A stretch of 64,000 bases of DNA from Okamejei kenojei (Eukaryota), in contig CM069148.1 of assembly GCA_035221665.1 (NCBI GenBank), positions 51,522,001 through 51,586,000 of the forward strand. Direction: 5' to 3'. Made by a program: the position numbers and the translations under genes. Below the pieces are notes generated by a model, which was not told the DNA's origin, did not search any database, and saw only the letters and a list, made by a program, of their open reading frames with translations. Below, piece after piece: positions 1 through 61,654 of the stretch. The stretch's first letter is position 1; the number at the start of each line of letters is the position of its first letter.

Positions 1-454
1 ATCTGTCATTTTGAATCCAGTTGTCCAGCTCACCTTGGACCCCGTTTTTAGTTTCATTTAGTTTAGTTTACCGAGGTGTAGTAAAAATCTTTTTGTTGCG
101 TGCTAACCAGTTAGCGGACTGTACATGATTAGTATTGAGCTGTCCACTGTGTACAGATGCAGGATAAAGGGAATAACGTTTAGTGCAAGATAAAATCCAG
201 TAAAGTCTGACTGAAGATACTGAGTTGGATGATCAGCCATGATCATATTGAATGGCGGTGCAGGCTCGAAGGGCCGAATGGCCTACTCTTACACCTATTT
301 TCTATGTTTCTATGTCTAAGATAATTGGCCTCTGTATAGGGGCTGGATGAGAAAGTGGGATAACATAAAACTAATGTGCGGGTGATCGATAGTCAACAGT
401 GGGCCGATGGGCCTGTATCTCAAAACTGAACTAAACTAAGCTAAAGTAAATGTG

Positions 455-5097: not shown

Positions 5098-5490
5098 AGA
5101 AGATAGACACAAAGTGCTGGAGTAACTCTGCAGGTCGGGCAGCATCTCTGGAGCAAAGGAATATGTGACGTTTCTGGTCAAGACGCTTCTTCAGACTGAG
5201 AGCCGGGGGGGGGGGGGGGGGAATTAGAGGTATGGTATGAAAAGGTATGGAGCAAATCAGAGCCGGCACCAATGACTCCAGAAAGGTAGTGCCCACAATG
5301 GTCCATTGTTGGCTGTGGAAGAGGTGATAACATAGGGGAACGTACAGTGAAACTAGTAGGATGATTATGGTGGGGGAGGGACAGATTGATAGGGAATGCA
5401 AATGTTATTTGAAATTAGAGAAAGCAAATTCATACCACTAGGTTGTAAGCTGCCCAAGTGCAATATGAGGTGCTGTTCCTCCAATTGGCA
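5098..5490 (-). mobile_element. PLE 3' end: GIY-YIG-region C-terminus, UTR and terminal repeat
   Basis: Minus strand 5489-5404 reads QLEEQHLILHLGSLQPSGMN (PLE ORF C-terminal motif). It is followed by a pyrimidine-rich UTR and CTGAAGAAGCGTCTTGACCAGAAACGTC (5194-5167). Confidence 0.8.
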
Positions 5491-6020: not shown

Positions 6021-6231
6021 GATAGTGACAACAACAAGGTCTGTTCCTTGTACTCCTTCCGCAATGCAACTACCTCACCACACAAGCCCGACGAAGGAGG
6101 CCGTGACCGCAGTGACATGATCTCTGGGGCAGCGTTTGGAACACCCGAACGACGCAAAGGAAGCTTAGCTGATGTAGTGGACACTCTCAAGCAGAAGAAG
6201 CTGGAGGAGATGACAAAGACTGAGCAAGATG
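6021..6231 (+). CDS. SOX6: Internal coding exon of SoxD transcription factor SOX6 (N-terminal region before the leucine zipper; corresponds to about human exon 3)
   Basis: Polypyrimidine tract plus CAACAG acceptor ending at 6020; GT donor at 6232 (g|gtaggc). 70 codons + 1 nt: [70 protein letters not shown]. The KQKKLEEMT and [16 protein letters not shown] motifs match SOX6 as recalled (SOX5 has KQRKMEELIK). Confidence 0.95.
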
Positions 6232-8930: not shown

Positions 8931-9739
8931 TCTTTCTGGAGTTCCCTGTTTCTGCCTGTGACCACAAGGGTTTCCTCCAGGTGATCTGGTTTCATCCCAC
9001 ATCCCAAAGATAAGCGGGCTTGTAGGTTAATCTGCCTCTGTAAAATGCCCTTAGTGTGTAGGAAGATGTGAAAGTGGAATAACATTATTGTGAATGTGTG
9101 ATCGATGGTCAACGTGGACTTGGTAGGCCGAAGGACCTGTTTCCATGTTGTATCTTTCAACAATATCCCCAAAAAAATCAAAAACATTTTAGAAGGGCTG
9201 ATACCGTAACAAAAAAAGCACTTTTTCCTTATACCATTACCCTAACTGAGATCCAACCGAAGAAGTTTCCCGTCCTGAAACATCACCTGTCCATGTTCTC
9301 CAGAGATGCTGCCTGAGTTACTCCAGCACACTGTGTCATTTATTTCCAACTGTTTTGTTCTGCTTTGAGTTGATCTCCTTTCTCTGTGGATAGTTTGCTC
9401 ACTCAGTGGCTGGTGGTTTTTCCCGCTATCCATTGAGGGAGCTCATGAGTTAGATTTGTTTATTGGAAACAGACCTTTCCGCCCACCGAAATGATCACCC
9501 ATACATTAGGGACAATTTACAGAGGGCCAAATATCCTCCAAACTCGTACGTCAGCGGAGTGTGGGAGGGAACCAGAGCACCTGGACAAAACCTACATGGT
9601 TACAGGGAGAACGTACAAACTCCATGCAGACAGCACCCATAGTCTGGATCGAACGCGGGTCTCTGACGCTGTATGGCAGCAACTCTACCGCTGCGCCACC
9701 GTGCCGTCCACACGTGGCAAGTGTGCCCTTCCATTTACT

Positions 9740-9939
9740 CACTGGAACTGGCAGCATCTCTGGAGAGAAGGAATGGGTGGTGTTTCAGTTTGAGACCCTT
9801 TTTCAGACTGAAGAAGGGTCCCGATCCGAAATGTCACCCATTCCTTCTCTCCAGAGATGCTGCCTGTCCTGCTGAGTTACTCTCGCATTTTGTGTCTATC
9901 TTCAGTTTAAATCAGCATCTGTAGCTCCTTCCTACACCT
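9740..9939. mobile_element. Palindromic PLE terminal-repeat unit with 11-bp TSD
   Basis: Palindrome centred on TCAGACTGA (about 9803-9811). TTCCATTTACT at 9729-9739 and 9940-9950. Confidence 0.85.
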
Positions 9940-12713
9940 TTCCATTTACTTGCTGTCCAACAGCATTTGTGATCAACACTACCCGGACTGTCCTGGCCAT
10001 TGTAGCTGTTACTCAAAGAACATTTTATGTCCATTTTCATTTTAAAGAAAAGGCCATTTTAAAAGATAAATCTTGAGCCATTTATTGAGTGTGAGCTGGA
10101 TACCCTTAACTCAGTTGGACTAAATGGCCAATGTAGCTCATATTCTCTGCTGTTTTTGATAACTGGGACCTTTAGTGAATCTGAAAGAGTCTTAAGTGCT
10201 TATGACCACAGTAATGAATCAAAATGGCTCCAGAGTACTCAGTTAGCTTGAATTGTCATGTGTTGCAAGAAAATGCTGTTCACACAAAGTGGAGCAAAAG
10301 CCCATAATACGGTATTTGCTTTACATATGTATTATTCATGAGGAGAAACGTGGCTGGTGACTGTCCCCATAACAAACAAAAAGATTTAGCTCCATTTTGA
10401 TTGAAATTGATTGCTAGATGCAGCATGGAACAAGGCCCTTCGCCCACTGAGTCCACACTGACCCGTTCACTCTAGTTCTGTGTTATCCCACTTTCCCATC
10501 CACTGCCTATACACTAGGGAGCAATTTACAGAGAGCCATTTCACCTACAAACCCGCACGTTTTGGGGATGTGGGAAGAAACCAGAGCACCTGGAGAAAAC
10601 CCACGTGATCACATGGAGAACATGCAAACTCCACATGGACAGCAGCCGAGGTCAGGATCGAACCCGGGTCTCTGGCACTGTGAGGCAGCGGCTCTACGAG
10701 TTGCGTGGCTATATAATGGGGTGATCGCTGGTCGGCGCCGACGGGCCTGTTGCCGCCTGGTATCTTGAAAGTCTAAAATAATTAAAACAAAAAAAATTCT
10801 AATATATTGAAGCATTAAAATGTACTCATGCACGCTGAAAACAATGAGACTTTTACTCCACTGTTAAATCAATGATCTGCTGGCTGGCGTTATGAGACCC
10901 CTTCATCAGACGGTTGTGCTTCTCCAGCTTACATCAGGGTGGGTTTAGCAGGCACGTTTCTGTGCCCAAGAGTTGGGAAGTCAGAGGGAATGTGTGCTCT
11001 CTCTCTGGTCTCTGGGGGCAGTGCTGCCATCCTGGTGCCAAGTCCTTGCTGGCGCAGAAGACAGTGTCTCTGTCTGGACATGGCAGCCCAGGCCTTCTGC
11101 TCGGTTAGGTGCTTAACAAGCGTCTAATCCAAAAGTGACCTGCCAACGTTTAACTAGACAATCTGCTCCTAAGAGGGCGAACATGGAACGTAGAACACAC
11201 AACATGGAACAGTACAGCACAGCACAGCACAGGAACAGGCCCTTCGGCCCACAATGTCCGTGCTGAATATGATGCCGGGATAAACTAAGTTAATCTGACT
11301 GCAAGTTCAACTAATCTTATTTGCACAGCAAGTGGTAGGTTGCTGGAACATGCAGCCCAGGGTGGTGGTGGAGCCAGATATAAGAGGCGCTTAGATAGGT
11401 GCCTAGATATACAGGGAATGGAGGGGTATGGCTCATGTGCGGGCAGAGGCGATTAGTTTACTTGGCATATGTTGGGCACAGACATTGTGGGCCAGTGGTT
11501 GTGTTCCTGTGTTGTACTGTTCTTGGTTCTACATTCTTGCTTTATTTGGAACTTCCAAGTACTTACAGCATAGTAAAACATATGCTAATTAGGGCCTTGG
11601 TGCCGTGGCTAATAATTAGAAAGGCTGAACAAAATCCAACAAAGCAATATAAAACAGAATGAAAACTGGTTTCAATATTAGTGTCACGGATACACAGGGT
11701 GGTCAAGAAGGCTTTTGATGCATTGGCCTTCAACAGTCAGGGTACTGAGTGTAGAAGTTGGGATGTTAAATTATGGCTGGTCGGCGCACACTCAGTGAAC
11801 TGAAGATCCTGTTTCCACGCTGTATCTCTAATGTCTGAGCATCTGACATACGTTTAAGGTGAGGGGCAACATTGTCACACAGAGAGGGTGGTATGTATAC
11901 GGAATGAGCTGCCAGAGGAGCTAGATAAGGCAGGTACTATAACAGCATTTAACAGACATTTGGACAAATGGAATGGTTTAGTGGGATATGGGCCAAACAC
12001 AGGGACTAGGGTAGATGGGGCATCTTAGTCAGCCTGTCCAAGTTGGGCCGAAGGGCCTGTTTCCCCGCTGTATGACTCTATGACTATATTGGGGAAATGT
12101 TATTCACTTACCATGGCAAATGATTTTCATTGCATCAAATGCTATGCCTTGCAGTTTAATTGCCATTGTAAAGAGAGGATGTTGCATTTAAAATAATCTG
12201 GATTAAAATATGCTTTCCAGAGGATTTTGCTGTGGATGCTGATTAGTATTATGGGGGGGCAGTAGCTGGGAGTGTGCCCTGAGACACAGAGTTCAGTCAT
12301 CACCATATGTAGTTCAGTAGATTGTTCAAGCCTGCAGGATTTGCCAGTCATATTGGCTTAAAAACTGATGACTGAATTCTCTGGCTGATGCAGCACATAG
12401 TTCAGATGCTGCCTTTAAATCCATATGTTGTTATTTTTGCAAACTGTTTGCATTTTAACTAGGTTTAATGTAAAGCATTTATATTTTGGATAAACTAAAA
12501 CAAAAATCTGTTCTGATTGTCGAGAAATGGCAGAGAAGTGGATGCGTTTGCATAATTGTTAGATCTACTGATGATCAATCAAGTATAAAGGGGATAATCG
12601 GTTTTTACATTCTAATTATTGTTACCATGTATTGTTCAGTAGATTGCTCAGCAGGTTGGAGAATATTCGTGCTGATTTTGGTTCCATTTCACTCCACGCT
12701 CCAATATTTTTTG

Positions 12714-14434: not shown

Positions 14435-14737
14435 TCAAGATGCAGCACAGAAACAGGCCCTTCGGCCCACCGAGTCCGTGCCGACCAGCAATCCCCGCAC
14501 ATTATCACTATCCTACACCCACTTGGGACAATTTTTACATTTACCAAGCCAATTAACCTACAAACCTGTACGTCTTTGGAATGTGGAAGGAAACCGAAGA
14601 TCTCGAAGAAAACCAACGCAGGTCACGGGGAGAACGTACAAACTCCGTACAGACAGCACCCGTAATCGGGATCGAACCCGGGTCTCCGGCGCTGCATTCG
14701 CAGTAAGGTAGCAACTCTGCCGCTGCGCCACCGTGAC
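14435..14737 (-). mobile_element. tRNA-derived SINE (HE1-like), CpG-rich copy inserted in a CR1 fragment
   Basis: Intact GGATCGAACCC (reverse B-box). CR1 sequence stops near 14418 and resumes near 14741. Confidence 0.9.
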
Positions 14738-14740
14738 TGC

Positions 14741-15260
14741 TGAAAGACGTGTTGTCAAGCTGGAAATGGTGCAGAGACAATTTACAAGGATGTTGCCAGG
14801 ACTCCAGGGTGTGAGCTACAGCGAGAAGTTGAGCAGGCTGGGTCTCTATTCCATGGAGCGCAGGAGGATTGGGGGTGATCGTATAGAGGTGCCCAAAATC
14901 ATGAGAGGAATAGATTGGGTAGACGCACAGAGTCTCTTGCCCAGAATAAGGGAATCGGGAACCAAAGGATATAGGTTCAAGGTGAAGGGGGAAAGGTTTA
15001 ATAGAACGTGAGGAGTAACTTTTTCATGCAAAGGGTGGTAGGTGTATGGAATGAGCTACCAGAGAAGGTAGTTGAGGCAGGAACAATTGTAATGTTTCAG
15101 AAACATTTAGATAGGTACATAGATAGGACAGGTTTAGAGGGATATGGGCCAAATAGTGTAAATGGGACATGTTGTATGGGAATAGTGTAAATGGGACAGG
15201 TTGGCCAGTGTGGGCAGTTGGGCCGAAGGGCCTGTCTCCACGCTGTAAGACGTCTATGAC
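14741..15260 (+). mobile_element. CR1-type LINE 3' end
   Basis: ORFs LEMVQRQFTRMLPGLQGVSYSEKLSRLGLYSMERRRIGGD and FFMQRVVGVWNELPEKVVEAG. Confidence 0.9.
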
Positions 15261-15390
15261 GCGAAAGGAACTGCAGATGCTGGTTAATACTGAAGATAAA
15301 CACAAAGTGCTGGAGTAACTCCATGGGTCTGGCAACATCTCTGGAAAAAAAAGGAATGGTGATATTTTGGGTCAGTACCTTTCTTCAGAC

Positions 15391-15664
15391 CCTCCTCCTA
15401 CTTGACAAGACCTCACAGCCACCTCCTCCTACTTGCCCCTGGACCATGGCCCCACAGATGAGCACCAGGCCATTATCTCTGAGACTATCTGTGATGTTTC
15501 TGCCCTCCACCGCCTACAACCTTATTGTTCCCCAGCCCCGCACCATCTACCTTCTCCCCAAAATCCATGAATAGAACTGCCTTGGCAAACCCATTGTTTC
15601 TGCCTGCTCCCGCCCCACTGAAATCATTTCCATGTACCTCGATTCCATCCTATCCCCCCTGGTG
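15391..15664 (+). pseudogene. Penelope-like reverse transcriptase N-terminal fragment
   Basis: Reads YNLIVPQPRTIYLLPKIHE*NCLGKPIVSACSRPTEIISMYLDSILSPLV (PLE YxLPKIHK..GRPIVS motif, with a stop). Abuts an inverted terminal repeat at 15266-15390. Confidence 0.85.
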
Positions 15665-22855: not shown

Positions 22856-24564
22856 CATTCTCATAATCTTGCCTTTCGTTGATAGAAACTGAAGAAATCT
22901 TGATCCCATCGGAATCACAGTAACCTGGCAGTGCAGCATCACTACCTGCTTAAATTATCTTTAGTTTAGAGATACAGCGTGGAAACAAACCCTTTGGCCC
23001 GCCGGGTCCACACCGACCATCGATCACCCATTCATAGACACAAAAAGCTGGAGTAACTCAGCGTGTCAAGCAGCATCTCTGGAGAAAATGTTTTGGGTCG
23101 AGACCCTTCTTCAGACTGAAAGTCAGAGGAGAGGGAAACTAGCATGGGATCACTAACATGGGTTCACACGAGTTCCATGTTATCCCACTTTCTCATCCTT
23201 TCCCTGCACATTAGAGGACAATTTACAGAGGTCCAATTAACCTACAAACCTACAGGGATTTTTTATCCTACCTATTTGCTAGTCTGCCTCCACCACCACC
23301 CCTAGTAGCATGTTCTTTGGGATGTGGAAGGAATGGATTAGTACGGCTGTCAGAGGTTATGGGGAGAAGGCAGGGGAATGGAATTAAGAGGGAGAGGTAG
23401 ATCAGCCATGATTGAATTGAAGAGTAGACTTGATGGGCTGAATCTGCTCCTATCACTTATGATCTTACAAAACTGGAGCACTTGGAGGAACCCCACACAA
23501 TCACAGGGAGAACGTGCAAACTCCACACAGGCAGCACCTGAGGTCAGGATCAAACCCGGGTCTCTGACGGTGTGAGGCAGCGACTCTACCCATCTGCACC
23601 ACAGTGCTGACTTGGTAATCATCTGGCGTCCTGCGTGTTTGCAGCTTCACAATAGTCATTATGAACTCTTTAGCACTAGTTGAGGTCATTGAGCAAAATA
23701 GATATTTTCATTAAAAAGATGCCGGGTTTCGATCCTACGGATAATATGATGTCACATTGTTTGCTCTCTCTGCCTCTATACGGTCCAGTTTGAGTTTCTG
23801 GGAGGTGCACCCAGTTGCATTGATGCTCCTTCCAAAAGCCATTTGAAAAGGAAGTGTTTCCTCCTTTTTAACAACGTAAACAAGGGCATCACTGTTGCGA
23901 AACAAACACCGTCTTTTTGATTTCTACATTACCAGTGTTCTCGTCCACACGGCGGACACTGTGCCCAGTTGGAGCCTTTGTACTTTGGGTGACATCATTG
24001 AGATGGTGTCACTTTTGGAATGGGCCCAGGCTCTACCAAGCATTGTGTGGCCTCTAATGGGCATGTGGGACAATGCCGGCCTTTTCAAACCTTCCGATAA
24101 AATCCTCATTTGAAAGGAAACGACGGTCTTCGAAGAACACAAAATACACTGTAAGTGGAATGCTTTAAAATGGAACATTTCAGCTTTAAGCAACTTTCCA
24201 CAATGGGTTTCAAGATTGCAGCTGGTCCTCCCATAGACTTGTTCTTTAGAACCCATCCATGTAAGCCTTCCACTGTCCCAACTTCTGTTTAATTAAAACC
24301 CAGTATTCATTGGTGAGTACAGTATGCCCTTCCATCTTTCCTCTTCCTCTCCTGCAACGGGTTCTCATCTTCTGACTACTGTGTTGCTTATGTATCCTAT
24401 TTTTGTACATCTTATTGTAACGGTCCTGCACCTGCGATGGGTGAGAGAATGCATTATTTAGCCGAGTTCCTTATTAACAAAGAAGAGGAAACTCGCTAAT
24501 GTGCTTTCCTGCCCCCGCTGAAGGCATCTGGGACATCTGCCGGACACGGGAACCATCCTTAAAA

Positions 24565-24780
24565 GGTTGCACAAAGATCTGCAGATACTGGAAACCCGAG
24601 CACAACACAAAGGGGTGGAGGAACGCAATGGATTGGGCAGCGTCTCTGGAGGGAATGGACAAGTGATGTTTTGCTTCGGGTTGGGATTGGTCTGAAGAAG
24701 GGTCCCGACCCGAAACGTCTCCTGTCCATTCCCTCCACCAATGCTGCCTGACCTACTGAGTTTCTACAGCACTTTGCATT
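24565..24780. mobile_element. Palindromic PLE terminal-repeat unit containing an intact hammerhead-like core (24692-24719)
   Basis: CTGAAGA-A-GGGT-CCCG-ACCC-GAAAC-GTC. Confidence 0.8.
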
Positions 24781-25657
24781 ATGTTTAAATGGCCATTCTT
24801 CATGAATCCAGAAAATGTGCAGGTTCATTGAAGTAGGAGTGCCTCATAAAGTAAAAGGTAGAACCTTGTATCCTACCAACCTGCTGATAAAACTAATGTT
24901 CTGTTCAGTAAAATCACAAGAGTTGAAAGCCTAGCCGATATTTACTCAACCCTCTTCCTTTCCATGTCCATACATTTAAAACCAAAGGTAAAGCTTCTAC
25001 AGTCCTTGGTAGGAGTATCAGACTTTGTCCATTATCCAGACCAAGACAAAAATGTTCTTTGATGACACAAGGAACTGTTGGTGCTGGAATCTTGCGAAAA
25101 GCACAAAGAGCTGGAGGAGCTCAACCGGTCAGGCAGAATCTGAGGAGGGAAAGAACGGGGGATGTTACAGGTCAGGACCCTTCATCAGAGCTGTTCTTTG
25201 GTTCTATGTTTCAGTATCACATCAGGAATGCAGATGCTAGATGAGATGTTGGAACATTAAGACTGATGACAATGGGATGTTGAGATCGAAGGTGGGAGAC
25301 TAATTGCACAACTATCATTGAGGTTTTTGGGGTGAAGTGCACAAGGGTTCAGAACTTACAGCTGATTATACTTGTTGATACTCGCCATTGACAAATGGCC
25401 ATGTTCTTCGTGGAACTTCCAATAAATATCTGCTGCAGGTGGGACTAGTGTAGATGGGACATGTTGGCCAGTGTGGGCAAGTTGGGTCGAAGGGCCTGTT
25501 TCCACGCTGTATCACTCTGTGACTATGAGTCCACAACATCATAGAACCTTCAAGTAATATCTGGCAGAATTTGCCCAGTGGGTTTGGGACTTAGACTTTT
25601 TTGCAAAGGAGTCCCAAACCGCCTGATTTTTGTGTGGGAGTAAATTCCCAGAAGTTT

Positions 25658-29375: not shown

Positions 29376-30623
29376 TAATAGCTTTAATGTGAGAGGGGCA
29401 AAGACTAGCACAATGGCATAGCCTCACAGCGCCAGAGACCCCGGTTCGATCCTCACTTCAGGTGCTGTCTGTGTGGGGTTTGCACATTTTCCCTCTGACC
29501 ACGTGGGTTTCCTCAGGGTGCTCCGGTTTCTTCCCACAGCCTAAAGACACGTGTGTTTGTAGGTGAAATAGCTTCTGTACTAGTGAGAACCGGCAATCAT
29601 TGGTTGGCAGGCTGAAGAAGGGTCCTGACCTGAAACGTCACTTATCCTCCAGAGATGCTGCCTGATCCGTTGAGTTGCTCCAGCACTTTGTGTTCTACTC
29701 ATCTAATTAATACGCAGCAGGTATTTACGGCTCTAGTGTATTGGCCATGAGTCTGAACTTATCCAATTAACGGCTCAGCCCGTTCACTTACACAGCCTTT
29801 CAACCCTGAATTTGCATTAATGTAATTAATGATAAACTAGCCAGTTGCTGCTGGACTTGGTCAGATCGCTTTGAAGTACTGGTCTAACTTCTCCAGTTTA
29901 TTAGCCGTAGTCTTGAACGTGACCCGGCTATACAAACATGACCCAACATTGCACTTTTCTGGTCTTTTACCCTGGACAAACTTTCAGCAATCAATGTTCC
30001 AAATCCAATTTAGTTTATTTTTAGAGAAACAGCGTGGAAACTGGCCCTTCAGCCTGCACCAACCAGTGAGCCCCGCACATTACCACATTATCCTATGTAC
30101 TCTAGGGACAATTTATACTTATACCGAGCCAATTAACCTACACACCTGTACGTCTTTGCTTTACATTTACAGTAACAATGTTAAAACTTTGCAACACTCT
30201 AAACTTATCAAAAACTGAGTTTGTCAAAACCAAACCACCAGTTTGGAAGAAGATGGGTATTTTCTACATGTTCATACTTATTTTATTTCTAAACTTGTGC
30301 TATTTATACAGTTAGAACATTAATTTTCAGGACAATCATTCCTCTCAAGAATGTATGGGGCAGGTTTTTTACACAGAGGGTAGTGGGTCACTGGAACCTA
30401 GGGTGGTGGCGTTTATGAGGCTTTTGGATAGGTACGTGGATATGCAGGGAATGGAGGGATATGGGCGGATCTTGCACAGGGAGATGAGATCAGTTTAGCT
30501 TGGCATCATGTACGGCACAGACATTGTGGGCAGAAGGGTCAGTTCCTGTGCTGTACTGATCTATGTTCTTTTTTTTCATGATAAACAATTCAATTCCCTT
30601 CATCTGACATCTCTCCATAGCAT

Positions 30624-31282
30624 ATAGAAACATAGAAACATAGAAATTAGGTGCAGGAGTAGGCCATTTGGCCCTTCGAGCCTGCACCGCCATTCAATAT
30701 GATCATGGCTGATCATCCAACTCAGTATCCCGTACCTGCCTTCTCTCCATACCCTCTGATCCCCTTAGCCACAAGGGCCACATCTAACTCCCTCTTAAAT
30801 ATAGCCAATGAACTGGCCTCAACTACCCTCTGTGGCAGAGAGTTCCAGAGACTCACCACTCTCTGTGTGAAAAAAGTCTTCCTCATCTCAGTCTTAAAGG
30901 ATTTCCCCCTTATCCTTAAGCTGTGACCCCTTGTCCTGGACTTCCCCAACATCGGGAACAATCTTCCTGCATCTAGCCTGTCCAACCCCTTAAGAATTTT
31001 GTAAGTTTCTATAAGATCCCCTCTCAATCTCCTAAATTCTAGAGAGTATAAACCGAGTCTATCCAGTCTTTCTTCATAAGACAGTCCTGACATCCCAGGA
31101 ATCAGTCTGGTGAACCTTCTCTGCACTCCCTCTATGGCAATAATGTCCTTCCTCAGATTTGGAGACCAAAACTGTACGCAATACTCCAGGTGTGGTCTCA
31201 CCAAGACCCTGTACAACTGAAGTAGAACCTCCCTGCTCCTGTACTCAAATCCTTTTGCTATGAACGCCAACATACCATTCGC
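30624..31282 (-). mobile_element. 5'-truncated young CR1-type LINE
   Basis: Uninterrupted 183-aa ORF2 C-terminus (LYRVLVRPHLEYCVQFWSP..LWNSLPQRVVEA..GYGEKAGTGY*) and (TTTCTATG)n tail. Confidence 0.95.
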
Positions 31283-32471
31283 TCAAAACGAGCACAAAAC
31301 GAAATAAAAAATAATAGAGCTAAACTTCTTCAGTGTACTTTCATCTGCACAGAAGAGCACAAAGTCCTTTATCTCTAACGCAGAGAAGGGCAAATCACAC
31401 CACGTCAGTCACCCTGCACCTTTCCCTCTTCTTTCGGCTCGTCTCCCATCCCTGCCTCGCGTTTCTCTTTTATCCTCTTCCCCACCCCACAGTTCCCTTC
31501 CACCTATATTTATCGGGCAACCTTTTATCTCCTTTTCATCTCTAGCCTTTGTCTCCAGCTCCACACATCCCCAGTCTTTCCCTTTCCCCCTCACCTGAAA
31601 TCCACATATCACTTACCGGGTCCATTCTACCCTATCTCTCTTTTACAACTTTCTCCCTCCTTCTTCAGTCGAAAGAGAAGGGTCCCAACCCGAACAGTGT
31701 CTGTTTGTGTTAGGACCCTAATTAGTTTCTCTTCATACGGATTTAGTATAGTTTAGTTTAGTGTAGACATGCAGCGCAGAGAAAGGCACATCAGCAATCA
31801 CCTGTGCACTAGTTCTATCCTACACACTGGGGGGGGGGGCAATTTAACTATAACAATTAACCAATTACAGCAAGACCAGTCCGGCCGACCATTTGTTTTC
31901 CCCTAGTCCCACCTGCACAACCATACCCCTCCATGTCGATCCTGCCTCCACCACCTCTGCTGGATGTCTGAGTAAAGAAAAACTTCTGTCATGTCATGCC
32001 GTTTAATCTTCCCTACCCTCAATGGGGTAAATTGGGATGTGGGAGGAAACCGGAGCACCCGGAGGAAACCCACGCGGTCATAAAGAGAACGTGCAAACCC
32101 CACACAGACAGCATCCGAGGTCAGGATTGCACCCGGGTTTCTGGTGCTGCGTGGCAGCAGCTCTACCTGCTGCACCACTGGCTGATTTCTTCCAGCGGTT
32201 CTGTTCATGTCCAAGGTTCCAGCCTGTGCAGTTTTGTTCATATTCCATATTTAAATTTTATTTAGCACCAACTTCAGAACTACAGAAGGGATTACAAGCA
32301 TCCATTATTGAATGAACAGAGATTAATGAACTGCAGCATCTAGAATTATGAGAAAATCACAAAGTACTGGAGGAACTCACAGGGTCAGGCAGTAACTGTG
32401 GAAGGAATGGACAGACGACGTTTCGGGTTGGGACCCTTCTTCAGATTGAATAGAAATTGGTTGTTTTTCTA

Positions 32472-40099: not shown

Positions 40100-40340
40100 G
40101 TTTAGTTTTGTTTAGTTTAGAGATACAGCGCGGAAACAAGCCCTTCGGCCTATCGAGTCCGCACCGACCAGCGATCCCCACACTTTAACACTATCCTACA
40201 CACATCTAAGGATAATTTACAATTGTACCAAGCCAATTAACCTACAAACCTGTACATCTTTGGAGTGTGGGAGGAAACGGGAACACCCGGAGAAAAGCCA
40301 CGCTGGTCACGGAGACAACGTACAAACTCCGTACAGACTT
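40100..40340 (-). mobile_element. tRNA-derived SINE (HE1-like), 5'-truncated
   Basis: tagtttagttttgtttagtttagagatacagc tail and family body. Confidence 0.85.
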
Positions 40341-40367
40341 GGGTTTAAGTTCAAACCAAATCAGAAA

Positions 40368-40840
40368 ATGGAACAAGGTAGAGAAGATTTACAAAGATAT
40401 TGCCAGGACTAAAGGCCCTGAGCTATAGGGAGAGGTTGGGCAGGCTAGGACTCTATCACTTGGAGCGCAGGAGGCTGAGGGGTGATCTTATAGAGGTTTA
40501 TAAAATCAAGAGGGCAACAGATAGGGTGCATGCACATAGTCTTTTACCAAGGGTAGGGGAATCAAGACCCAGAGTGCATGGGTGTAAGGTGAGAGGAGAA
40601 AGATTTAATAGGAACCTGAGGGGCAACATTTTCACAGAGGTTAGTGGGCATATGGATCTAGCTGCCAGAGGAGGTGGTTGAGGCAGGCACTATAACAGCA
40701 TTAAAAAATATAGGTACGTGGATAGGAAAAGTCTAGAGGTGTGTGGGCCAAATGAGACTAACTCATTGCATGTGGCACTACATGTTGGTGATCATGGACA
40801 AGTTGGGTGGAAGAGCCTGCATCCCAGCTCTATGACTCAA
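40368..40840 (+). mobile_element. CR1-type LINE 3' end
   Basis: ORF PGLKALSYRERLGRLGLYHLERRRLRGDLIEVYKI. Confidence 0.9.
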
Positions 40841-42967
40841 GGACTCCAAGGCAAATCGTCGCCTGGCTCTACTTTAATGGAACAGTACATTCCTATTTTC
40901 TAATTCAGCATTGAAAGAAAAGAACTCACAAGTGCAAATCAAAACAATCCAAATTTCCGAAGTTGAAATAAGCCAGTATTTGTGTTCTGATCCGTGTCTT
41001 TACCTCTCCTGTCCTAACGTTGACATCTTAAGCTTCTCCTGAAAGATCACATCGTTATTGCACTCAAAAATGCAGGCACCCTTGTGGAAAAGATTTATGT
41101 TAAAAAGTTCTTGTTATCATTGAGGATGAAATATATCACATAAAGTTATATGGCAGCCTTTATAAAAACCATCTGGTGAAATGTATAAGGCAAACCGTAT
41201 TGGAGGAGCAGAGAGCTGCATTTAAATGCAAACCTGACAAATAAATATGCCTTTAAAGCCAATGGAAGTAGTTCTAAATCACAAATTGTTTTTGTCTATA
41301 TCCACTATACCTGCTAATTTTAACTGGAGGGTTTGCTTTGATTAGTAGTAATATTTTTAATATTAAAATTAATATTAGTAGTAATAGTAGTAGTTTTGCT
41401 TTTTTCCCTGCTGTATTGCAAAGGATTGCATTAAGTTCTTCACATTCTGCAATGTCGGGGTTTCTACAGCAGATTTTTTTTAAATTAGCTACAGCGAACT
41501 GCATATTCTTTGTTTATCACTTCAAAGTGGCGTAACTGGTAGAGCCGCAGCTCTCACTGCCAGACACTCGGGTTCGATCCTGACCTCAGGCCCTGCCGTG
41601 AGTGGAGTTTGCACATTCTCCATGTGACCGTGTGGGTTTCCTCCGAGAGCTCCGGTTTCCTCCAACGCCCAAAAGCCGTGCGGGTTTGTAGGCTAATTGG
41701 CCTCTTTAAATTGCCCCTAGTGTGCAGATGCGAAATTGAGATAACATAGAACTAGTGTGAACGGGTGCACGGGTGACGGTTGGCATTGACTTGATGGGCT
41801 GAAGGACGTGTTTCCATGCTGTATCTCCAAACTAAACCTTCGAGCCAGCAGCGCCATTCAATATGTTCATGGCTGATCATCCAAAATCAGCACCCCGTTG
41901 CTGCCTTCTCCCCAGATCCCTTGATTCCCTTTGCCCTAATAGCTAAATCTAACTCTAACTAAATAGTATGAAGGGATGATTGATGGTCGCCGTGGGCTCG
42001 GTGGTCCGAAGGGCCTGTTTCATTCTGTATCTTTCAGTTAATGAATTGAAGGGAGCCTGGAACAGTTTCTGAAGTATAGAATAGGAATGAACTACAGATG
42101 CGGGTTTACACCAAAGATAGACACAAAAAGCTGGAGTAACTCAGTGGGTCAGGTAGCATCTCTGGAGAAAAGGAATCCTAGATGCTGCCTGACTCCCCTG
42201 AGTTACTCCAGCTTTTTGTGTTTATCTTCGGAAGTGTAGTGTTTTGAATGGGAATTTTGACTTATATCCCGCTGTAAAATGAACTCTAACATTACACACG
42301 ACGGGTCTGGTGTGTAAGCATTGTCTATTTATAGACAATTGACACAGTTGCTATTGGTGATCTGGGCACCACCTAAACGAAAACCTACAGGTGACTATTA
42401 GTTGTATTCATTAAGTGGAATAATGACGGATACTTGGCAGCATTGAAATCAGAATTCCCTGAGGTGCAGGTGCCTAGCAAAGTACTGACACATGTCAACT
42501 AGTGTAGGCACTTCACCCATGCATATGAACTGCATTTGCATATTAAAGAGGCCTGAAATTATTTAACTGAACTAAAGTCTTTTCAGAGATGATGGAGGTT
42601 ATTAAAACTGTTGACAAGAAAAGGGTAATTGCCAGAAAATGAGAGATCAGATTCTGTTGTACAGAGAGAATGTTGTTTTCCTTGCATTGTGCTAAACTGG
42701 TGGAGTCGAGCCTATTACATTCAGAATACTCTCTTGCAATTAAAGCTTTTTGTCTTGCATTCAATTAGACGGTGATTATGAGAGATTTGAAAACACTTGA
42801 TGTATGTTCCATTCTCTATTGTGATGCAACTTCAGCATCTCGAGTTTTTTTCCCCTTGCTGTTCCTTGAAAGTTTAAGATTATGATTTTGATTATAATTT
42901 TTATCACAGTGTGGTTCAGTACAGCGTGGCTGCTACTGTTTCCAGATGCCTTTCATATTCATAGAGT

Positions 42968-44042: not shown

Positions 44043-44668
44043 TTGAATTGAATACATTTTATTTGCCAAATATGTATACATACAAGGAATTTGCCTTGGT
44101 GCTTTCCTCGCAAGCAATAACACGATATACCGTAGACAATTACAAATAAAACATAATAATTTAAACATGAGAAGAATAAAATAAAATACCAGAGTAAAAA
44201 GAGACTGCAGACATTTGGCTGTTGATTAGAGCTACTGCTCTTGGACAAAAGCTGTTTTTACGTCTGGCTGTGACAGTCCAGAGTCGCCTCCCAGAGGGAA
44301 GTGATTCAAAGAGTTTGTGGCCAGGGTGAGAGGGGTCAGAGATGATCTTACCCACTCGCTTCCTGACCCTTGCAGTGTACAGTTTGGTGATGGTGGGAAG
44401 GTTGCAGCTAACAACCATCTCGGCTGATGGAACAGTGCGCTGCAGACTCCGGATGTCGTGCTTGCCGGCTGAGCCAAACCAGGCCATGATGGAGAAGGTG
44501 AGGACAGACTCAATGATGGCCGTATAAAACTGGACCATCATTACCTGTGGCAGATTGTGTTTTCTCAGCTGCCGCAAGAAGTACATCCTCTGTTGGGCCT
44601 TTTTGACTGTGGTGTCGATGGTGGTCCCCCATTTAAGGTCCCTGGAGATGATAGCTCCAAGGAACCTG
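44043..44668 (-). mobile_element. 5'-truncated Rex1/Babar-clade LINE
   Basis: 174-aa ORF FLGAIISRDLKW..KKAQQRMYFLRQLRK..FYTAIIESVLTFSIMAWFG..DPSHPGHKLFESLPSGRR..KNSFCPRAVALIN; (TTCAA)n tail. Confidence 0.92.
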
Positions 44669-44772
44669 GGGCAACAGCAGAGCACTTGTTAAAGAAAACA
44701 CACAAAGTACTGGAGTAACTCTGTGGGTTAGACAGCATTGCATCTCTGGAGAACATGGATAGGTAATGTTTG

Positions 44773-54402: not shown

Positions 54403-56313
54403 TAGAAACATAGAAAATAGGTGCAAGGGGAGGCCATTTGGCCCTTCGAGCCGGCACCGCCATTCATTGTGATCATGCCTGATCATCCACAATCAGTAAC
54501 CCATGCCTGCCCTCTCTCTATATCCCTTGATTCTGCTAGTCCCAAGAGTTCCATCAAACTCTCTTTTAAATTCATCCAGTGAATTGGCCTCTACTGCCTT
54601 CTGTGGCAGATATTTCCACAAACTCACAACTCTCTGGGTAAAAACGTTTTTTTCTCATCTCAGTTTTAAATGGCCTCCCCTTTATTCTTAGACTGTGGCC
54701 CCTGGTTCTGGGCTCCCCCAAAACTGGGAAACATATTCTTGCATCTAGCATGTCGAGTCCTTTTATTATTTTATATGTTTCTATAAGATCCCCTCTCATC
54801 TTTCTAAATTCCAGTGAATACAAGCCCAGTCTTTCCAATCTTTCCTCATATGACAGTCCCTCCATCCTGGGGATTAACCTCATGAACGTATGCTGCACTG
54901 CCTCAATAGCAAGAATATCCTTCCTCAAATTAGTAGACCAAAACTGCACACAATACTTCAGATGTGATCTCACCAGGGCCCCGTATAACTGCAGAAGAAC
55001 CTCTTTACTCCTATACTCAAATCCTCTCGTTATGAAGGCCAACATTTAGCTTTCTTCACTGCCTGCTGTACCTGCATGTTTACTTTCAGTGACTGGTGTA
55101 CAAGGACACCCAGGTCTCGTTGCACTTCCCTTTTTCCTAATCTGACACCAATGAGATAATAATGCACCTCCTTGTTCTTGCCGCCAAAGTGGATAACCTC
55201 ACATTTATCTACATTATACTGCATCTGCCATGTATCTGCCCACTCACCCAACCTGTCCAAGTCACCCTGCAACCTCCTAGCATTTTGTTTGCAGTTCACA
55301 CTGCCACCCAGCTTAGTGTCATCTGCAAATTTGCTAGTGTTCATTTTAATTCCATCATCTAAATCATTCATATATATTGTAAATAGTTGCGACCCCAGCA
55401 CCAAGCCTTGCGGCACTCCACTCATCACTGCCTGCCATTCTGACAGGGACCCGTTTATTCCTACTCTTTGTTTCCTGTCTGCCAACCAATTCTCTATCCA
55501 TGTCAATACCCTACCTCTAATACCAAGTGCTCTAATTTTGCCCACTAATCTCCTGTGTGGGATCTTATCAAAGGCTTTCTGAAACTCCAGATACACTACA
55601 TCCACTGGCTCTCCTTAATCCATTTTACTTGTGACATCTTCAAAAAATTCCAGAAGATTAGTCAAGCAGGATTTCCCCTTCATAAATCCATGCTGACTTG
55701 GACCAATCCTTTTTACTGCTGCCGTTTAATCCTTTTAATGTGCCGTTATTACTTCTTTAATGATTGACTCCAGCATCTTCCCCACCACCGATGACAGGCT
55801 AACTGGTCTATAATTCCCCGTTTTCACTCTCACTCCTTTCATGAAAAGTGGGATAACATTAGTTACCCTCCAATCCACAGGAACTGATCCTGAATCTATA
55901 GAACATTGGAAAATGGTCACCAATGCGTCCACAATTTCTAGAACCACCTCCTTGAATACCCTGGGATGCAGACCAACAGGCCCTGGGGATTTATCAACCT
56001 TCAGTCCCATCAGTCTACCCAATACTATTTATCACCTAATGCAAATTTCTTTCAGTTCCTCTGTCTCCCTAGATCCTCTGTCCTCTAATACATCTGGGAG
56101 ATTGTTTGTGTCTTCCTTTGTGAAGACAGAACCAAAGACCCTGTTCAACTCTTCTGCCATTTCTTGTTCCCCATAATAATTTCACCTGTTTCTGCCTTCA
56201 AGGGTCCCACATTTGTCTTTACTAATCTTTTTCTCTTAACATACCGAAAGAGGCTTCTACTATCCTTCTTTATATTCTTGGCCAGCTTACCTTCGTACTT
56301 CATCTTTTCACTC
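54403..56313 (-). mobile_element. About 1.9-kb 5'-truncated CR1-type LINE with full RT domain (frameshifted)
   Basis: ORFs DKSPGPVGLHPRV..NYRPVSLSSVVGKMLESI; VYLEFQKAFDKIPH..SGVPQGLVLG..SKFADDTKL; LVRSHLKYCVQFWS; (TTTCTATG) tail. Confidence 0.96.
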
Positions 56314-58363: not shown

Positions 58364-58458
58364 AAGATAGACACAAAAAGCTGGAGTAACTCAGCGGGAC
58401 AGGTAGCATCTCTGGAGAGAAGGAAAGGGTGACATTTCGGGTCGAGACCCTTCTTCAG
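58364..58458 (-). mobile_element. PLE terminal-repeat half unit with 11-bp TSD, inside a Rex1/Babar tail
   Basis: ACTATGGACTG at 58353-58363 and 58459-58469. Confidence 0.88.
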
Positions 58459-59819
58459 ACTATGGACTGTGTTGGTTGTATCAAGGACTTTAGGCTTTTT
58501 TGCACTGCTATAGGAATTATTCATTTATTGAAATATTATCAATGAGTATTGCGTCTACAGGCTATTCTGCTGCTGCAAGTAAGAATTTCATTGTTCTGTT
58601 GTGGGTACATATGATAATTAGCACCGTGTAGGAAGGAACTGCAGATGTGGTTTACTCTGTAATTAGACACAAAATGCTGGAGTAACTCAGTGGGTCAGGC
58701 AACATCTCTGGAGAAAAGTAATAGGTGACATGTCTGATCGTGGCCCAACGTCAGACCTCGTTGGAGAGAGGAGGAGAATTTCTTCTGAAGAAGGGTCCCA
58801 ACCTGAAATGTCACCTATTCATTTCTTATAGATATGCTGCCTGACCCACTGAGTTACTCCAGCGTTTTGTGTCTGACAGTTAACACTCTTGACTCTTGTC
58901 TCTTCTTCAATGCAACCAGTTCCATTTCTGCTCAAATCCTACCCACCAATTTGATCCTGTCATTCAAAGTTCAGAAAATAGCTGTGCAACTTTTCATATT
59001 CTTCCTCACATCTTTATTTTTCTAACGGCAGGCAGCATCTTCATGAGTCCACGTCATACAGCCTCAACGGGATGGCGTTACAATTTCCACATGGCTCTCT
59101 ACATTACTCTGGCATATATATTTCTTTCACAATTTCATTCACACTCTGCAGTGTGACATTTTTCATGAGCTAAATAGTTTACAGCATTTTATAGGAGACT
59201 CATTAAGACAAAGAGGGTAATAGGAATCATTTTAAATGCATATCTACCACAATACTGTGATTGTTATGGCCTGTTTCCTTTATCATCGTTACTTTTTTGC
59301 ATATCTTTCATTTGTTGTTCTTTACCTCTCTACATCATTGTCTATATTTCTCAGTTCCTTCCAAAACATAAAATGAATGCATACTTTGCAGTTTAAAAAT
59401 GTCCCTTTGTGCATCCATTTAGAATGAGAACAAGGGAATTATCTTGGCCCAAAGCGAGGGTTTTGGATGCATAGTTTTTGCTTGTTCTCGAAGCATCTCA
59501 GTCAGAGCATGTCTTGGTTAAGGAAGTACAGGGAGAGGAAAGGTTTGCAGAGTCGACAGATCACCGAACAGCACTCTCACACTGAAGCAGCACAAGAAGG
59601 ATCACCAGTGCCTGCTTACTGAGGAGACTGAGCAAATTCAGCATGTTTTCAGTGACTTAGGTTAGATTTTTTTCGTTTAGAGATACAGAACGGAAACAGG
59701 ACCTTCGGCCCACCGGGTCTGTGCCGACCAACGGTCAACCCGTACACCACCACTATCCTACACACTAGGGACAATTTTTCCCCAAGCCAATTAACCTACA
59801 AACCTGCACATTTTTGGAG

Positions 59820-60230: not shown

Positions 60231-60504
60231 TTCAGATACTATTGCTCTCGGGAAAACACCTCAGCTCATTGCAGGCCAGCAAGAGGAATTTGTTTTCTAT
60301 AGGAAGGATATGTTCAGCACGTTTGACACAAAGTACAGTCATTATGGCACTGAAATGTCAGGCACTGTATGGATCACCAGGCGAGAAGACACGTTGGTTA
60401 ACGGTACTTGAATCTCCTTTCTGACAAACGTCTTGGCTTTACAGTATGTCCCTAATATGTTTAAGGGGGTCAGTGGGCATAATTATCAGTGAGATCAAAG
60501 GTTG

Positions 60505-60725
60505 TATAAAGAAGGAACAGCAGATGCTGGTTTAAACTGAAGATAGACACAAAATGCTGGAGTAACTCAGCGGGACAGGCAGCATCTCTGGAGAGAGGAA
60601 TAGGTGACGTTTCGGGTCGAGACCCTTCTTCAGTATCTAGTGTCTAATCTAGTGTCTCAAGAAGGGACCCGGCCAAAAATATCATCTGCCTGACCCACTG
60701 AGTTCCTCCAGCACTTTGTGTTTCG
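60505..60725. mobile_element. PLE terminal-repeat palindrome with consensus hammerhead-like core (60606-60633, minus strand)
   Basis: Reverse complement CTGAAGAAGGGTCTCGACCCGAAACGTC. Confidence 0.82.
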
Positions 60726-61654
60726 CTTAAGTGTTCCTCACAATCTGCTGTTAAGTATGAGTCTCTCTAAATATAGTTATCCCACTGTAAACTTCCCAAA
60801 AGCTCCAAGTACATTTTACAAGGTGGATCACTTTACATCAGAACTGCTTCTGTTGTGTTTTGGACAAATTGAGTAAAATGATTGCTTTGCGATCAGGTGT
60901 GAAGGCATACAAATTGAGTACACATTCTTAGTATCGAGAGAAATCGTATCATTTCTTGGCAAATCCATTATCAAAATGAGACTGTCTTCAGATGGTAATG
61001 CTTGATCCATGGGCTGTGAGCCTGATGGATGGAGTGTACTGTGTAGGAATGCACTTTGGTGCAATATTAAGGCGTGGGTCAGACTAATAAAAGGTTATAT
61101 TTGGACTTGCAATTGCCTGCATAACGCGGTGTAATTGACTGTACCTTTACTCATACCGGAAGCATCCAGCCTGTGGAAAATAAAAGCTCCATATTTGTTT
61201 CTGGGCTACGACTTGAATAAGCCATTGTTCCATGTTGGAAAGTTTCACCATGAGCCTGTTCCTGTTGCTTGGGATTACAATAATACATGGGAATCTTATG
61301 ACTCTGACAGTTGTGTTGGCAGCCTGCCATGGTTACTGGGTGAGGCTTGTCAATGGTACATTATGGTGAACAAGCACATGATGAGAGTTCTGAGTAGAAA
61401 CCGTTTCCTTTCTATGTATCTGTACCCCTAAAAACAAACGTTATTCACCAGGTCAGTGAGGGATATATAATTGTGGGATTAGCTCCAAACTCTAGAAACA
61501 AGGAACTGGGATGTTGCTTTACAAACTAGACACTAAGTACCAGGGCAACTCAGCAGGTCAGGCAGCATCTCTGGAGAACATGGGTGGTGACGTTTCTGGT
61601 CAGGACCCTTCTTCAGACTGACTCTGCCTGACTAGTCGGATGCTTTTCCACTTC

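Follow-up and report, generated by a model that had tools for sequence, protein, structure and literature searches.

Hammerhead motifs scattered through the introns of a gene raise the question of whether they cut that gene's transcript or are the remains of something else. We addressed it in a 64,000-nt stretch of the Okamejei kenojei genome (contig CM069148.1, positions 51,522,001 to 51,586,000; hereafter the window), where an initial annotation had marked nine copies of a 28-nt hammerhead motif. The motif is real and non-random, and its copies in the window are dead stubs. We consider it highly probable that it is a minimal hammerhead present in both terminal repeats of a Penelope-like element (PLE), and that the window copies are decaying stubs which likely do not cut the transcript of the surrounding SoxD gene. 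The motif and its host element are of a known kind, and the element family is new and very abundant. The interest lies in the mapping of insert ends, not in the SoxD intron. The role of the hammerhead for PLEs is stated as unclear by Craig et al. 2021 (PMC8557442), and the present family supplies young copies by the tens of thousands, with sharply defined ends. According to these ends, the cDNA was mostly copied from uncut RNA and often ended exactly at the first letters of the core.

Motif copies in the window

All nine sites were recovered at the coordinates and on the strands first assigned to them. Counted over its 24 specified letters, the motif occurred in the window in 3 exact copies, and in 7, 10, and 12 copies at up to one, two, and three mismatches, respectively. 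Markov controls (n = 20) yielded no copy at up to three mismatches. The whole genome contained 60,097 exact copies (30,217 + 29,880) and no match to a control pattern. The motif forms the 5′ boundary of a ~130-nt host repeat, and the window copies are stubs of 90–130 nt. A profile search found 54 pieces of this repeat in the window, 25 on the + strand and 29 on the − strand, covering 5,086 bases; no tandem array of the repeat was present there.

The CUGANGA, GAAA, and UH core is present at all nine sites, and helix I has 0–2 bp at each of them, never more. The core, four Watson–Crick helix II pairs, and the ACGU palindrome are kept together at three sites: 24692..24719 (+; helix I 0 bp), 32417..32444 (−; helix I 2 bp, antisense to the SoxD gene), and 60606..60633 (−; helix I 0 bp). 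The extra nucleotide after A9, the G10.1–C11.1 pair, and palindromic 15.2–16.2 were also found together at three of the nine sites. A stub begins with the 24692..24719 motif and is paired with an inverted copy at ~24568–24686 (−), and the 60606..60633 stub has its inverted partner at ~60659–60752 (+). The initial annotation had listed six core-intact copies, with a weakened helix II in the last two. The weakening in fact extends to three: 29612..29639 (+; G–U at the 10.1–11.1 pair, helix I 0 bp, stub reaching ~29721), 61589..61616 (−; one mismatch, at 10.1–11.1, helix I 2 bp), and 5167..5194 (−; two helix II mismatches, helix I 2 bp). The copies ending in GAAAT, which had been called near-intact, lie where they were placed, but they have lost the palindrome. 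These are 9808..9835 (+; helix I 0 bp, inverted partner ~9737–9806 on −), 58431..58458 (−; complete stub, helix I 2 bp), and 58785..58812 (+; G–U in helix II, helix I 1 bp, inverted partner ~58623–58746 on −). The complete stub at 58431..58458 is framed by a 12-bp target-site duplication, at the 5′ edge of the core and 66 nt past the cut.

Head-to-head stub pairs make up long hairpins at 1648–1873, 9737–9937, 24568–24781, 42077–42234, 58623–58919, and 60485–60752. An Rfam scan of the window returned 8 matches up to E 5, with no hammerhead family among them. Three of the hairpins matched Rfam miRNA models below the gathering thresholds; we rejected a miRNA identity, as these matches are fold-back stubs with scores below gathering. 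The window holds a second abundant short repeat family (e.g., 14438–14694, 10506–10697, and 40121–40378), which we take to be a SINE. Broken pieces of other, LINE-like elements lie at 30722–31282, 54572–56176, and 44161–44688, with an RVT_1 match (E 2e-20) at 55033–55614.

The element carrying the motif

Among 20 loci fetched for long frames, two were intact (L063 and L064, 98% identical). Each contains the motif, a 1,185-aa ORF, and a second motif, with the two motifs 3,954–3,955 nt apart, i.e., elements of ~3.95 kb. The first motif lies 126 nt upstream of the open frame, the ATG follows 134 nt past the predicted cut, and the second motif is found 234–235 nt downstream of the stop. About 500–900 nt of the 3′ end, motif included, are repeated before the ORF at 99% identity, so that both loci show a pseudo-LTR of the kind produced by a partial tandem. 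The single ORF combines an RT with a C-terminal GIY-YIG endonuclease, the hallmark of EN+ PLEs. It matched Pfam RVT_1 (E 5e-6) and GIY-YIG (E 0.004), both under the Pfam cut-off, and RT/HTH_animal/GIY-YIG clusters of the atlas (0.97). In longer copies, too, a frame encoding RT and GIY-YIG motifs lies upstream of the hammerhead. Between RT and endonuclease, the translated ORF has a CX4CxxC linker, within the CX2-5CxxC pattern of Neptune and Nematis elements, and this points to a candidate element of one of these two types. The inverted 5′-truncated copies and the optional 30–40-nt tail of EN+ PLEs were both found here.

Because the motif stands in both terminal repeats of the intact elements, it is, on sequence grounds, the known minimal type I hammerhead of PLEs. 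The earlier proposal of Penelope-derived terminal repeats is thus upheld by L063 and L064 and by the Pfam and atlas matches. The same holds for the hammerhead core with its vestigial palindromic helix III, to which the extra A can be added.

Three pieces of the window resemble parts of the element. The copy at 23038..23142 (−) keeps ~25 nt of the upstream UTR (blastn to the L064 unit, 75% over 117 nt) and thereby ties the stubs to the element. A broken fragment of the ORF lies at 15344..15664 (+; tblastn E 1.5e-15) and adjoins an inverted stub at ~15253–15388. A UTR piece without the motif is located at 59266..59358 (+; 84% over 93 nt). Elsewhere, four copies (L187, L189, L201, and L202) share an identical inverted-tail junction before the core, which points to a small amplified family in which the inversion is fixed.

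3′ ends of the inserts

The 3′ ends were mapped in 104 young copies, partly chosen for the ORF and required to have a tail of at least 40 nt. Measured from the predicted cut, 62 of the 104 ended at +62..67 and 30 at +97..101. These clusters match the two internal RT starts and the tail described by Frangieh et al. (PMC11167929). Starts at the cut itself accounted for <1% of copies. Since they are so rare, uncut RNA is likely the main template of the inserted cDNA. A purine replaced C17 in 282 copies, compared with 165 for the base before it and 37,133 native copies, so that the cut site stood 1.7-fold above the neighbouring base; 12 of 30 inspected purine-at-C17 copies were point mutants. A footprint of cleavage at the cut site, if any, is small and at most weakly expressed. 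In the mechanism we propose, the RT-endonuclease would nick the DNA and begin copying inside the RNA, at the +62..67 or +97..101 site, on a template that the ribozyme would have left uncut.

The copies bearing the ORF start (L293–L322, 30 of 511) had 3′ ends at +157..+323 and at +965..+1018 past the cut. The latter cluster comprised 7 copies, 5 of them at +985. These clusters suggest that the RT also starts at internal sites within the ORF.

5′ ends of the inserts

Among 25,144 exact young copies, 16,311 had the native four letters before C3 and 8,833 did not. We fetched 60 loci with non-native upstream letters, of which 53 passed the exact-core filter. At 38 of these the core adjoined unrelated DNA, at 14 an inverted copy, and at 1 a duplicated core; native UTR was found at none. 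The frequency of such ends was obtained from 84 young copies, chosen only by an exact 38-mer in the first 7.6 Mb of one contig; an intact core being required, stops inside the core are invisible in this sample. The 5′ end fell at −5..0 of the core in 32 of the 84 (38%; 95% interval 28–49%). The stop rate there was 0.064 per nt vs. 0.005 over the next 25 nt upstream and 0.001 beyond −100, corresponding to ratios of ~14 and ~50. A target-site duplication was seen in 11 of the 22 non-inverted stubs, and the other 10 of the 32 stubs were inverted. A tail-anchored sample, biased to long copies, gave a weaker pile-up, with 3 of 36 ends at −3..−1 and 9 spread over +5..+58. Sixteen of the 30 copies that bear the ORF start reach the core, where 9 stop at −5..+6 and 7 continue upstream. 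A single start site does not account for the 7 that run past the core unless there is also a second class of longer templates; alternatively, the RT pauses at the core and the stop is leaky.

We see roughly an even chance that the pile-up marks a transcription start inside the repeat, 2–3 nt before C3. A start at −3/−2 fits the 5′ edge, the 2-bp helix I, and the letters preceding the ends. In a hand count of the first 100 listed starts at −2, G preceded 47, vs. ~30 expected (p 0.0007), as a copied cap would give; before −3 starts the count was 36 of 100, which is not significant (p 0.09). The repeat was present in contigs of 8 sequencing runs (24 listed, 2 recorded as RNA), which carry no starts, ends, or strand. 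In four runs from other organisms, the depth rises at the same 5′ edge, and these runs may be DNA. According to the proposed mechanism, copying would stop at the core in about 4 of 10 events and leave a stub of 90–130 nt, most likely because the RNA begins 2–3 nt before C3. In the remaining events, copying would continue through longer templates and truncate at scattered points. More tentatively, the core may be the 5′ end of a capped transcript, which would account for the 2-bp helix I, the same 31 letters then acting as core promoter and as protein-assisted ribozyme. If so, thousands of stubs would form a genomic record of the start site.

The strongest competing explanation, to which we assign a lesser but real chance, is a leaky RT stop at the 5′ strand of the core, caused by RNA structure or a bound protein instead of an RNA start. 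In its favour, the stop fractions at −5..0 are similar for tail-primed (32/84) and ORF-primed (4/11) copies, and the inversions often turn at the core (10/32 stubs). Moreover, a predicted pairing joins the first strand of the core, from −3 on, to the tail segment that ends at the +98 RT start. This pairing (L064:2149–2290) is weak (z −1.5) and would hold the ribozyme off. The pile-up, however, is the same for the +62..67 and +98 starts, and is therefore independent of the +98 pairing. The upstream UTR folds no better than shuffles (z +0.99 across the stretch), and an excess of G at −3 would be unexpected from a pause. Something other than a start site or a pause is a still smaller prospect.

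Directly upstream of the core, L064:2090–2151 comprises a pyrimidine tract and an AG ending one base before C3, resembling a splice acceptor. No spliced retrocopy was present among the 53 inspected loci. A splice acceptor as the origin of the 5′ edge is not favoured, as the stubs adjoin target-site duplications or inverted copies and share no exon; an intron may still be present in the master transcripts. We found no description of the 5′ pile-up in print, in a search that covered few subscription journals.

Constraint on the hammerhead and its possible activity

Helix I of the master elements consists of U–G plus G–C only. The caveat that this helix is limited to about 2 bp was well placed, and it applies to the intact masters as well as to the window. 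A relaxed hammerhead descriptor gave 46 matches in the 664 kb around the window and 1–3 in controls. Helix I had at most 2 bp in 44 of the 46, shorter than the 4–5 bp expected of PLE hammerheads. A longer helix I in some part of the family was considered and rejected, as the natural 4-bp cases derive from flanking DNA or inversions. The active double-hammerhead fold was calculated at −6.7 kcal/mol, whereas the most stable dimer predicted for this short RNA reached −19.7 kcal/mol; the energy models leave out the non-canonical core contacts. Helix covariation was absent in 23 aligned copies, all dead and derived from masters whose stems are identical, and the sole stem change among subfamilies was a one-sided U–A/U–G.

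The letters of the motif, by comparison, are strikingly constant. In four to seven tail-defined subfamily majorities, obtained from 510 copies, 1 of 31 positions varied from −3 to C17 (in loop II) vs. 16–18 of 60 in the tail (p 0.002–0.009). The catalytic letters, the extra A, G10.1–C11.1, and the palindrome were kept in all of them, and the last three also in the intact masters. The motif proper did not vary among six subfamily majorities and is therefore required by the master elements, which are under constraint on the letters from −3 to C17. We predict an inactive ribozyme in free RNA, given the 2-bp helix I, the lack of helix III in the monomer, and a core strand that could pair with the tail; cleavage would be limited to master transcripts, where the dimer would be assisted by the protein.

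The same constancy could reflect another function, and there is a minor chance that the motif is no longer a ribozyme in this lineage, its letters being kept as a core promoter, a splice acceptor, or a protein-binding site. Even intact young masters have a 2-bp helix I, covariation is absent, the active dimer fold is the poorer one (−6.7 vs. −19.7 kcal/mol), and non-catalytic letters are as invariant across subfamilies as catalytic ones. The motif also presumably resembles the initiator and downstream promoter consensus, and a pyrimidine tract and AG stand just before the core. An internal promoter is present in the element of D. virilis. According to Cervera and De la Pena 2014 (PMC4209133), an intron in that species terminates at helix I, on its 5′ side. 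Against a loss of ribozyme function, every catalytic letter, the extra A, G10.1–C11.1, and the palindrome are retained, and the energy models leave the non-canonical core contacts unscored. A 2-bp helix I is likewise reported for D. virilis (PMC4209133), and the anole ribozyme, silent alone, is described as cutting with its protein (PMC11167929). Start site vs. pause, and protein-assisted cutting with a 2-bp helix I, are both directly testable in an intact young element. Dimer cleavage was reportedly treated by Luense et al. in 2017, work that may bear on the 2-bp helix I variants.

Copies in the SoxD gene

A coding exon of a SoxD gene lies at 6021..6231 (+), with a 62% paralog on another contig and a weak atlas match to SOX-5-like proteins (0.87). 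More exons and a split HMG box come downstream on this strand, at 112–344 kb counted from where the window begins. Over 42 residues, the HMG exon shows 5 differences from PDB SOX5; PDB searches with the SoxD exon and with the element ORF gave no matches. Judged by these exons, the window sits in a + strand SoxD gene. We assume this gene to be SOX6 rather than SOX5 or SOX13. The first description of the locus as a SOX6 intron was right as to a SoxD gene, but the sites span two introns: the 5167 site lies in the intron preceding exon 6021–6231, and the other eight in the next one.

Decay was followed in the 251 copies of the surrounding 664 kb that span both core and tail. At the two CpG positions G12 and G16.2, the G was kept in 155 of 246 copies (lost in 37%) and in 162 of 242, respectively. 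In individual copies, mismatches reached 4.9% at non-CpG core positions vs. 7.5% in the tail, and 25.8% at CpG core positions vs. 13.8% in the tail. We rejected selection on the core of individual copies as an explanation, since the profile was seeded on likeness to the core and the tail figure includes subfamily differences. Inside the SoxD gene there were 141 sense and 141 antisense pieces, and 15 sense vs. 7 antisense core-intact copies (p 0.13). Neither the pieces nor the core-intact copies were depleted on the sense strand of this gene. In one gene where intronic cleavage is perhaps tolerated, such strand counts indicate no selection against the copies, and do not speak against cutting. 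Copies in antisense are not hammerheads in the SoxD transcript, and the sole sense copy in the window with an intact core, helix II, and palindrome is 24692, where helix I has 0 bp. The claim of many self-cleavage sites in the intron is therefore not supported, given the lack of sense depletion, the CpG decay, and a single intact sense copy that has no helix I. A domesticated intronic hammerhead would be marked by a curated Rfam match and conservation at the locus; here, no Rfam hammerhead family matched and the copies decay.

That the dispersed copies are working cleavage sites which affect the SoxD pre-mRNA, possibly paired as dimers, we regard as very improbable: three window copies do retain core, helix II, and palindrome, the descriptor matches exceed the controls (46 vs. 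1–3 in 664 kb), and ~60,000 exact copies offer many potential dimer partners, but one of the three intact copies is sense and it lacks helix I, helix I is limited to 2 bp in 44 of the 46 matches, sense copies are not depleted, CpG decay hits G12 and the palindrome, and in print (PMC4209133) single minimal motifs are given as without cleavage and dimers as cleaving at a low level. The window stubs would thus likely not cut SoxD RNA, and for the SoxD gene the copies look irrelevant.

Comparison with known systems

The arrangement of the motif in the element is that described by Cervera and De la Pena 2014 (PMC4209133), who reported minimal type I hammerheads in the pLTRs of metazoan PLEs. Helix I has 2 bp here, against 4–5 in the S. 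mansoni families and 2 in D. virilis as given there, and helix II has 4 bp, against 7–8 and 6, respectively. A further difference is that no covariation was seen inside the genome here, and the 60,097 exact copies compare with ~4,000 and ~9,000 motifs in its richest vertebrates. Two of its three supplements contained no shark or skate terms, and our literature searches for hammerheads or PLEs in cartilaginous fish returned listings without such a description.

The Neptune and Nematis EN+ PLEs of Craig et al. 2021 (PMC8557442) are described with the same C-terminal GIY-YIG and a Zn-finger-like linker as the present element, and EN+ PLEs in that work likewise show partial tandems, inverted 5′-truncated copies, and a tail. 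Animal non-LTR retrozymes, according to a preprint (bioRxiv 10.64898/2026.07.22.740005) that places them in one chondrichthyan genome, share the type I hammerhead and the PLE origin. They are tandem arrays, whereas the stubs in the window are bounded by junctions of their own and by target-site duplications, and no array of hammerhead-bearing tandem units was present there.

By analogy, the closest tested case for ribozyme function is the Poseidon element PAc of Anolis carolinensis (Frangieh et al. 2024, PMC11167929). The present element differs from it as far as the PAc text describes: the ATG lies 134 nt past the cut here and inside the ribozyme in PAc, the CX4CxxC linker of the protein sets it apart from PAc, and the 5′ pile-up at the core has no description in the sections of that text considered here. 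The anole ribozyme is reported to cut only with its protein and not to be needed for insertion in vitro, and nicking by the RT-endonuclease followed by internal copying of the RNA was shown there in vitro. As in our element, PAc has two internal RT starts downstream of the cut, which define a 30–40-nt tail, and it is inserted from uncut RNA, with no reads at the cut.
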